Source: an uncultured Gammaproteobacteria bacterium (GTDB taxonomy: Bacteria; Patescibacteriota; Patescibacteriia; CAIXNZ01). Taken from it: a stretch of DNA of 64,000 nucleotides. This document shows, piece by piece, positions 63,258-63,353 of this stretch. Where the stretch lies: positions 131,954 to 195,953 of the forward strand of contig CAZPVP010000001.1 in NCBI GenBank assembly GCA_964590345.1, written 5' to 3'. Each line of letters begins with the position of its first letter. Within the stretch, counting starts at the first letter, position 1. The notes under the pieces are model-generated. The model made no database searches, was not told the origin of the DNA, and was given only the letters and a program-made list of their open reading frames with translations. A program made the translations under genes and the position numbers.

Positions 63258-63353
63258 TGCGGGCGGCAGGATTTGTCCCAAAGGGATCCCCTTGGGAAAC
63301 CTGCGACATCCTGCTCCCAAAGCAGGTGCGCTACCAGACTGCGCTACGCCCAC
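63258..63353 (-). tRNA. tRNA-Pro (anticodon UGG) carrying a 22-nt near-palindromic insertion in the T-loop
   Basis: I folded this by hand from the minus strand: GTGGGCG-TA-GCGC-AGTCTGGTA-GCGC-A-CCTGC-TTTGGGA-GCAGG-ATGTC-GCAGG-TT[TCCCAAGGGGATCCCTTTGGGA]CAAAT-CCTGC-CGCCCGC-A. It has a 7-bp acceptor stem (one G-U pair), U8, A14, G18G19, U33, G37, and a 5-nt variable loop. Apart from the insertion it is very close to E. coli tRNA-Pro(UGG). CCA is not encoded. Confidence 0.65.

Follow-up and report, generated by a model that had tools for sequence, protein, structure and literature searches.

The window considered here, that is, the whole stretch of DNA that was analysed, is 64 kb long, has a G+C content of 35% and is very gene-dense. 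The best matches of its Pth and FtsZ proteins are 72-81% identical and belong to Patescibacteria/Parcubacteria MAGs, some of them named Candidatus Buchananbacteria; by the names on these matches, the host clade appears to be Patescibacteria (Parcubacteria), "Buchananbacteria"-like. The syntenic loci of seven relatives (L005, L008, L009, L012, L013, L020 and L021) served for comparison; L005, L009, L012 and L013 belong to the assemblies GCA_975847985.1, GCA_964400885.1, GCA_964531215.1 and GCA_042568725.1. At the locus of interest, a tRNA-Pro(UGG) gene closes what appears to be a minus-strand unit and faces the convergent gene pth. From promoter to terminator, the features of this unit are the following:

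63689..63717, minus strand: a perfect sigma70-type promoter (TTGACA, 17 nt, TATAAT, with an upstream TG)
63546..63682 (about), minus strand: a conserved structured RNA, unassigned to a family, at the head of the tRNA-Pro unit
63363..63530, minus strand: a hydrophobic ORF of 55 aa that has a strong Shine-Dalgarno sequence and stops 9 nt short of the tRNA
63258..63353, minus strand: the tRNA-Pro(UGG) gene, 96 nt, recognized by its Rfam score (51.7 bits), by an ARAGORN call after deletion of the insert and by a cloverleaf as minimum free energy (MFE) fold
63298..63353, minus strand: the 5' part of the tRNA-Pro (positions 1-55, with the 5' strand of the acceptor, the D and anticodon arms, the variable loop, the 5' strand of the T-stem, and U54-U55)
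63276..63297, minus strand: a 22-nt palindromic insertion, UCCCAAGGGGAUCCCUUUGGGA (palindrome TCCCAAGGGGATCCCTTTGGGA), between U55 and C56 of the tRNA-Pro
63258..63275, minus strand: the 3' part of the tRNA-Pro (C56-A73: CAAAU of the T-loop, T-stem 3' strand, acceptor 3' strand and discriminator A)
63226..63253, no strand assigned: a hairpin plus T-run, directly 3' of both tRNA-Pro and the convergent pth, conserved in L008, L009 and L020

The promoter probably drives the noncoding RNA, the small ORF and the tRNA-Pro as one transcription unit, and the hairpin with its T-run looks like a bidirectional terminator common to tRNA-Pro and pth.

Is the interrupted sequence a genuine tRNA gene? On the sense strand it reads GUGGGCG-UA-GCGC-AGUCUGGUA-GCGC-A-CCUGC-UUUGGGA-GCAGG-AUGUC-GCAGG-UU[UCCCAAGGGGAUCCCUUUGGGA]CAAAU-CCUGC-CGCCCGC-A. 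Against the Rfam tRNA family (RF00005) it reaches 51.7 bits, for a gathering score of 29, and no other tRNA-like sequence is matched within the 64 kb, even when E<=1 is allowed. Both the Rfam alignment and the MFE fold contain the four paired arms together with U8, A14, G18G19, U33, U54U55C56, A58 and C61. The gene has the anticodon UGG (in the loop UUUGGGA), G37 and A73 (3' end ..CGCCCGC-A) as identity features of tRNA-Pro, its acceptor stem begins with G1-C72 and U2.G71, and no CCA is encoded. E. coli-type ProRS uses C1-G72 as its identity pair in the acceptor. This pair is absent not only from the window gene but also from the tRNA-Pro of three relatives (G1-C72 in L021, A1-U72 in L013 and G1.U72 in L020), so that its absence is a trait of the clade and not a sign of decay. 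CCA is the commonest proline codon of the window (281 of 805), and therefore a tRNA with the anticodon UGG is needed; another gene for it may exist elsewhere in the source genome.

The departure from the canonical structure lies in the T-loop, which comprises 29 nt (7 + 22) where bacterial elongator tRNA-Pro has seven, and which takes up 27 nt at a place where the Rfam model has 5. The junctions on the sense strand are GCAGG-UU-[UCCCAAGGGGAUCCCUUUGGGA]-CAAAU-CCUGC, and the deletion of exactly 22 nt leaves the canonical 7-nt T-loop UUCAAAU. ARAGORN finds no tRNA in the intact window and calls a tRNA-Pro(tgg) once positions 63276-63297 are deleted. The original prediction of a near-canonical tRNA-Pro(UGG), interrupted by a 22-nt palindrome exactly between U55 and C56, is thus borne out by the sense sequence, the Rfam alignment and the comparison of the gene with and without its insert. 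Two details require correction, namely the strand, since the gene lies on the minus strand, and the likening of the gene to proV: the tRNA-Pro genes of E. coli are proK, proL and proM, and proV is not a tRNA gene.

Taken alone, the insert folds into a hairpin (-13.4 kcal/mol) with a GAUC loop and a 9-bp stem that includes one G.U pair. A hairpin had been foreseen, with a stem of 10 bp; the tenth pair would leave a loop of 2 nt, so that the stem is one pair shorter. For the intact gene, RNAfold gives the full cloverleaf plus the self-contained hairpin (-50.5 kcal/mol, z = -3.8), with pair probabilities of 0.90-1.0 in the arms. The pairing of the element is internal and ends flush at both junctions; the cloverleaf keeps its four arms, and the residual loop nucleotides U54, U55, C56 and A58, as well as G18 and G19, are preserved in the folds.

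The palindrome is present a second time in the window:

29684..29705, orientation unresolvable: a second copy of the palindrome, reading CCCCAAGGGGGTCCCTTTGGGA on the plus strand, in the ftsA-ftsZ spacer

This copy is identical to the tRNA-Pro insert at 20 of 22 positions, a match for which 100 shuffles gave an expectation of 0. It lies 34 kb away from the tRNA and 26 nt upstream of the ftsZ ATG, within a stretch of ∼110 nt that is missing from relatives. It has two mismatches to the T-loop type of the window in one orientation and one or two to the D-loop type described below in the other; being a palindrome, the copy has no resolvable orientation. The suggestion that the ftsZ leader and the tRNA share a small repeat is well founded. 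An operator-site reading of the element was rejected on structure, size and location.

The relatives provide the context for the insertion. The interval between pth and dprA holds a variable minus-strand tRNA array of 0, 1, 3, 7 or 15 genes, as follows:

L005 and L012: no tRNA gene
L008: Cys
L009: Ala-Cys-Thr
L013: Asn-His-Met-Phe-Pro-Thr-Arg
L021: 15 tRNA genes
L020: Pro only, interrupted, uncalled by ARAGORN
Window: Pro only, interrupted, uncalled by ARAGORN

An equivalent of the TTGACA...TATAAT promoter also lies upstream of the L021 array.

The uninterrupted state is found in L013 and L021, whose tRNA-Pro(UGG) has the T arm of the window gene, GCAGG-UUCAAAU-CCUG(C/U), without the insert; a metagenome scan for exact arms separated by a gap of 0-30 nt retrieved three unrelated tRNA-Pro genes that share this core, and they have no insert either. 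The interrupted state recurs in L020, where Pth is 80% identical to that of the window: its tRNA-Pro(UGG) carries UCCCACAGGGAUCCCUUCGGGA at the same U55/C56 site, within the same operon of noncoding RNA, small ORF, tRNA-Pro and terminator, adjoining pth. The T stem of this gene is down to two pairs (GC-GG vs CCUAU), and two neighbouring positions of its hairpin are mismatched. Four further copies of the element lie inside the tRNA array of L021 (Pth 78% identical). The tRNA-Asn(GUU) has one in its D-loop, AG[UCCCAAAGGGAUCCCUUUGGGG]UUGGCA; the tRNA-Gly(ACC) has one at the same D-loop site, where the element has GGGACCCC in its middle; and the tRNA-Asp(GUC) has two, one in the D-loop and one in the T-loop, the latter reading UU[UCCCAACGGGAUCCCUUUGGGA]CAAAU. 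With the 22-mers deleted, each of these genes gives a normal ARAGORN call. The tRNA-Asp has an A2.C71 mismatch and the tRNA-Gly the unusual anticodon ACC, and these defects, together with that in the T stem of L020, mean that some insertion-bearing genes may be decaying. The L021 locus is 100% identical over 8 kb to L022 and L023 (the sources of the three are two JGI metagenomes and an ENA assembly), which excludes an assembly error for its inserts.

The copies in L020 and L021 dispose of a one-off, recent insertion, and with it of the proposal that a single element had landed in one tRNA. On these comparisons, the insertion is old and conserved, a clade-wide trait of tRNA genes, since the same insert occupies the tRNA-Pro of L020 and the Asn, Asp and Gly genes of L021. 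A scan of 185,579 species genomes returned no tRNA-Pro(UGG) with an insert of 8-38 nt after U55, apart from one chance match in a Thiobacillus coding region; the pattern was limited to D arms with GGTAGCGC and to inserts that do not begin with C, and this restriction means that the scan says little about other tRNAs. A palindrome scan of viral contigs yielded one unrelated terminator-like hairpin only.

The element family is small. The seven copies detected are distributed over three genomes, and all except the one in the ftsZ leader are inside tRNA genes. The seven-copy alignment (A4) has 16 invariant columns and a tRNA-sense consensus of U-CCCAAAGGGAYCCCUUUGGG-R. Within the tRNAs, the element is found at two positions only: in the D-loop at 15/16 or 16/17, which are indistinguishable because U is repeated, and in the T-loop at 55/56. 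In canonical tRNAs, G18 pairs with Psi55 and G19 with C56, so that folding brings the two sites next to each other; each of them borders on G18-Psi55, the tertiary pair of the elbow. The residual loops are canonical in every carrier, AGUUGG.A for the D-loop and UUCAAAU for the T-loop.

In the alignment of the hairpins, 93.7% of the cells are paired and all of the variation is single-sided. Compensatory, double-sided changes are absent among the seven aligned copies, and this lack of covariation gives no evidence for selection on pairing as such. What appears to be conserved is the sequence and not the pairing, and a sequence-specific partner or concerted evolution fits this pattern as well as mere tolerance. 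Neither a target-site duplication nor a consistent flanking motif is present across the seven copies. The sequence AAAT, which follows both window copies and extends their match to 26 nt, was considered as a shared target motif and discarded because it is missing at the D-loop copies. The copies have no REP-type GTAG head, and no transposase domain (RAYT, IS200-IS605 TnpA) was detected in the window ORFs and the fetched loci examined.

The inserts also have a practical consequence: standard tRNA finders overlook or misname the genes that carry them. In their intact form, the tRNA-Pro of the window, that of L020 and the tRNA-Asp of L021 are all missed by ARAGORN, while the tRNA-Asn and the tRNA-Gly of L021 are both called as a 98-nt "Asn(gtt)". 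The miscall arises from a fold around a GTT within the insert, in which the real anticodon arm is taken for a variable arm. It is wrong for the tRNA-Gly, and right for the tRNA-Asn only because the true anticodon of the latter is also GTT. Rfam scores these two genes at 27.5 and 23.7 bits, below the threshold, and does not detect the tRNA-Asp. When estimates of genome completeness in this phylum list tRNAs as "missing", such inserts can be the cause.

How old is the insertion, and is the gene that bears it still under selection? The yardstick is the adjoining pth gene. At its four-fold sites, the window and L020 are identical at 12 of 32 positions, for a fraction of 0.32 expected at random, and any two of the window, L020, L021 and L013 are identical at 33-44% of such sites, for a random expectation of 32%; the synonymous sites of pth are thus saturated. 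Against this background, the body of the tRNA-Pro is 89% identical between the window and L020, with 43 of 44 identities over the 5' half (positions 1-43). The inserts agree at 19 of 22 positions, which has a binomial probability of about 1e-5 with p=0.4, and of the 20 positions in the consensus core of L021, one is different in the window insert. The insertion therefore predates the split of the window and L020 lineages and has not drifted neutrally since.

The stems of the tRNA tell a similar story. Relative to L021 and L013, the window and L020 have two derived double changes in common, U-A to G-C at pair 12-23 and G-C to C-G at pair 31-39. Pair 6-67 is U-A in L021 and L013, U.G in L020 and C-G in the window, a series that indicates that, once the insertion existed, a compensatory change became fixed in the lineage of the window. 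The paired stems, the presence of the universal nucleotides, this compensatory change and the saturated background argue, although not conclusively, for continued selection on the window gene. The choice originally posed, between a pseudogene and a processed tRNA, is consequently too narrow for a feature that is old and conserved and for a gene with signs of continued selection.

With moderate confidence, we lean toward the reading that a family of small palindromic repeats has colonised the elbow loops of tRNA genes in this clade, and that it has done so in genes that still work. The window gene is a real tRNA-Pro(UGG), one that is probably still used; its place in an intact unit between promoter and terminator and the need for its anticodon speak for this. 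The element would be a tiny, non-autonomous palindromic DNA repeat that occasionally reaches new sites, such as the D-loop, the T-loop and the ftsZ leader. Its spread between tRNA genes may have proceeded by gene conversion via the conserved flanks ..GCUCAGU/UGG.. and ..GGUU/CAAAUCC.., and selection would spare only those insertions that fall at one tolerated spot. The hairpin would then be kept in the mature tRNA as an extra helix extending from the elbow, an outcome that is only slightly favoured over its excision. A precedent for retention is offered by the hairpin repeats in mitochondrial rRNA genes, which remain in the transcripts (PMC2800124). However, the elbow of tRNA is a docking surface for the ribosome, RNase P and T-boxes (PMC3664808), and this argues against a retained helix, as does the fate of aptamers inserted into the D- and T-loops of an E. 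coli tRNA, described below. The small number of copies and the conservation of sequence instead of pairing also weigh against this reading.

Or, is the hairpin removed from the RNA? According to this alternative, which we consider possible but unlikely, the 22-nt hairpins are intervening sequences that are excised by a protein endonuclease able to recognise the hairpin, its sequence or the elbow of the tRNA, after which the ends are joined again by an RNA ligase, for instance RtcB, with the loops restored. A more specific proposal, that the palindromes are mobile, protein-spliced mini-introns served by an elbow-hairpin endonuclease and a ligase in a non-self-splicing bacterial pathway, seems to us a little more doubtful still. 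Excision would account for the observation that the exact deletion of 22 nt gives canonical loops in all five genes. It would also account for an element that is 90-95% conserved across saturated species without compensatory changes, as a sequence-specific enzyme would impose. Moreover, insertions in the D- and T-loops are not tolerated in the tRNA-Tyr of E. coli, where aptamers placed in the D-loop (16/18) or the T-loop (57/58) left no detectable tRNA, while variable-loop fusions worked (PMC5397188). Parallels outside of the Bacteria, as relayed in PMC4090602, are the 3-24-nt D-/T-arm inserts of nucleomorph tRNA genes, which leave the RNA by an unknown route, and the archaeal introns at 53/54, 56/57 and 59/60, which transpose between tRNAs.

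The difficulties of excision concern the machinery. With both junctions at the foot of one uninterrupted 9-bp stem, a bulge-helix-bulge is impossible, and 22 nt are too short for a ribozyme. To our knowledge, no tRNA splicing endonuclease, of the EndA type or any other, has been described from bacteria. A candidate enzyme is likewise absent from the data at hand, since neither a splicing endonuclease (EndA/Sen) nor a ligase occurs among the Pfam domains of the 20 window ORFs searched and of the fetched loci. Reviews of bacterial tRNAs give only introns of groups I and II (PMC4033280, PMC13011429). On balance, excision is nearly as good a reading as retention, and it would explain the strict conservation of the sequence better.

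A third possibility, which we hold to be improbable, is that the interrupted genes are pseudogenes hit by selfish palindromic DNA, while intact copies elsewhere do the work. The tRNA-Pro of L020, with its broken T stem and degraded hairpin, would suit this explanation, as would the A2.C71 mismatch of the L021 tRNA-Asp and the ACC anticodon of the L021 tRNA-Gly. The pth-dprA slot freely gains and loses tRNA genes, so that transient duplicates are plausible, and the lack of such an insertion in tRNA-Pro(UGG) across the 185,579 species representatives, within the restricted pattern of that scan, points in the same direction. The window gene also lacks the encoded CCA that most tRNAs of the relatives possess; however, the tRNA-Cys of L008 is without an exact CCA as well, and the missing CCA is therefore not diagnostic. 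Decay is hard to reconcile with the 89% identity of the window and L020 genes despite saturated neutral sites, or with the compensatory change from U6 to C that became fixed in the window lineage. The L021 tRNA-Asn shows only about four differences from the uninterrupted tRNA-Asn of L013, and the interrupted Asn and Asp genes are the sole ones for their amino acids in the 15-gene L021 array. Finally, these genomes are streamlined, and the spacers between their genes are very short. An artefact of assembly or sequencing, for example a palindromic misjoin in a MAG, is extremely improbable: the window species is indeed represented by one contig only in the protein collection, but the same insertion occurs in the independent L020 assembly of another species, the element is present in the three independent and identical assemblies of a third species, and the same window holds the ftsZ-leader copy.

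A tRNA gene interruption of this kind was not found described for bacteria in our literature searches. Retention and removal of the hairpin would both be new. If it is retained, bacterial translation accepts an extra helix at the elbow, where E. coli tolerates no insertions. If it is removed, bacteria have a new, undescribed tRNA splicing activity, and if the palindromes are mini-introns, the Bacteria would possess a pathway for tRNA splicing that is not self-splicing and that comes with a mobile substrate of its own. A possible benefit, which is speculative, is that the interruption of the T-loop disrupts a classic attachment site of integrases, as proposed for archaeal tRNA introns (PMC4090602).

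Several known systems resemble the element in part. Bacterial tRNA genes have been called structurally uniform, with introns of groups I and II as the only significant exception (PMC4033280). Within the same phylum, a 2026 survey of tRNA introns in Patescibacteria describes group I introns at 35/36 in the anticodon loop and, in its scope, nothing like the 22-nt inserts (PMC13011429). The common ground is the interruption of tRNA genes in this phylum, with tRNA-Asn and tRNA-Asp among those that annotation misses. [quoted passage not shown] The core of a group I intron (P1-P9) alone requires at least about 200 nt, and no Rfam intron model matches the window, so that the original judgment that the insert is unlike such an intron stands.

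The intervening sequences of bacterial rRNA are comparable in form, being hairpins on the loop of a conserved helix in a stable RNA, with a patchy distribution among relatives. They differ in that RNase III excises them without religation; the stem of the element, with only 9 bp, is short for RNase III. We know of no precedent for a tRNA that is cut into two or three pieces by excision without religation.

A stronger resemblance is to the non-canonical tRNA introns of Archaea, for which "intron transposition" has been described in Thermoproteales (Fujishima et al. 2010, as related in PMC4090602 and PMC4033280). According to these accounts, such introns are short (tens of nucleotides), lie outside of the anticodon loop in the D and T arms (20/21, 53/54, 56/57 and 59/60), occur as near-identical inserts in different tRNAs of one genome, which implies spread, and cause standard finders to miss the genes. 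In contrast, the host here is a bacterium, the element is a flush, perfect hairpin, and its two sites are those beside G18-Psi55. Splicing of the archaeal/eukaryal type was rejected on structural grounds: the bulge-helix-bulge, which has one 3-nt bulge on each of the opposite strands and 4 bp between them, is missing, as is the relaxed hBH form, and the 5' end of the would-be intron, UCCC, cannot pair with the 3' exon, CAAAUCC. The nucleomorph tRNA genes of Guillardia theta, whose 3-24-nt insertions in the D and TpsiC arms are excised as confirmed by RT-PCR (Kawach et al. 2005, as related in PMC4090602), are likewise comparable for the very short inserts in the D and T arms and for the highly reduced genome. 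They are eukaryotic, and as far as that account goes, their inserts do not form one conserved palindrome. Both the archaeal and the nucleomorph inserts are removed from the RNA, whereas for the element described here removal is only a possibility.

The last group of systems comprises the small palindromic repeats. Some enter structural-RNA genes and are, with the archaeal and nucleomorph inserts, among the closest analogues: the GC clusters of yeast mitochondria, the double-hairpin elements of fungi and the hairpins of sponge mitochondria (PMC4478555, PMC2800124). As in these organellar repeats and in REP or MITE elements, GC-rich hairpins of ∼20-40 bp occur as near-identical copies in an AT-rich, compact genome and are patchy among relatives; a short, imperfect palindrome in several near-identical copies is what REP/RAYT- and MITE-type repeats have in common with the element. 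Some copies of the organellar repeats even reside within genes for rRNA and persist in the transcript (PMC2800124). Unlike REP and MITE elements, which are mostly extragenic, and unlike the organellar repeats, the element described here has six of its seven copies in tRNA genes, at two precise positions, and it is conserved across species whose neutral sites are saturated.

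The tRNA slot, i.e., the variable minus-strand tRNA gene array between pth and dprA, is headed by a conserved structured RNA of ~135 nt. In the window it is preceded by a perfect sigma70 promoter and followed by a small ORF, and it recurs in five of the syntenic loci of relatives (L008, L009, L012, L013 and L021):

Window 63689-63717 (-), perfect sigma70 promoter
Window 63546-63682 (-), structured RNA
Window 63363-63530 (-), hydrophobic ORF of 55 aa
L008 10700-10830, structured RNA
L009 10905-11035, structured RNA
L012 10580-10715, structured RNA
L013 11625-11760, structured RNA
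L021 about 7700-7850, structured RNA

The head of the slot is the constant position of this RNA. RNAalifold gives it a Y-shaped fold in which 10 pairs are changed on both sides, and an Rfam search with the threshold relaxed to E<=10 found no match. This could be a Patescibacteria ncRNA not described before.

The 55-aa ORF has a strong Shine-Dalgarno sequence, AAGGAGGTG, and ends 9 nt before tRNA-Pro; its Pfam search was without a match. The region stands at 68% in the alignment with the locus L020, where the ORF called has 86 aa.

Between pth and dprA, the clade of the window has a hot spot for the gain and loss of tRNA genes. Across the seven relatives (L005, L008, L009, L012, L013, L020, L021) this interval holds 0, 1, 3, 7 or 15 tRNA genes, with additional ORFs in some. 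Within two of the arrays, a conserved GC-rich segment of ~130 nt is situated between tRNA-Phe and the tRNA that follows it:

L013 11167-11305, GC-rich segment
L021 6886-7019, GC-rich segment

This segment has no Rfam match and may be a further small RNA processed out of the tRNA transcript.

In the doubly interrupted tRNA-Asp of L021, the fold preferred by RNAfold pairs the D-loop element with the T-loop element in a 22-bp duplex, at -54.6 kcal/mol; with each element as its own hairpin the energy is -48.6 kcal/mol. For this region (about 6578-6700), Rfam returned only spurious miRNA-precursor-like matches. The same gene (minus strand) carries an A2.C71 mismatch. Other oddities of the arrays are a tRNA-Gly with the unusual anticodon ACC (L021 7020-7117, -), and a C instead of U at position 33 of tRNA-Asn in two species (L021 6021-6118, -; L013 10815-10890, -).

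Elsewhere in the window, the following were observed:

1494-1913, PrgI-family gene
7213-15156 (-), giant ORF, 2647 aa
21680-22024 (-), stand-alone gene assigned to PF05635, the "23S rRNA-intervening sequence protein" family (E = 5.6e-35)
36403-41217 (-), giant ORF, 1604 aa
41256-52571 (-), giant ORF, 3771 aa

Syntenic giant proteins of relatives have Pfam matches to T4SS-pilin, Big_5 and Laminin_G_3.

The second copy of the 22-nt palindrome of tRNA-Pro lies in the ftsA-ftsZ spacer (29659-29894), which is conserved in its 5' part and measures 236 nt, whereas those of relatives span 105-135 nt. The additional ~110 nt contain this copy and a 12-bp inverted repeat:

29715-29726 / 29782-29793, TTATTAGGTAAT / ATTACCTAATAA

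Another small hairpin repeat, GCTCTGAGCC..GCTCAAAGC, unrelated to the palindrome, recurs at terminator-like positions in relatives:

L008 9967-9990 and 10670-10694
L009 about 10868-10893

The short hairpins in these genomes thus fall into at least two families.
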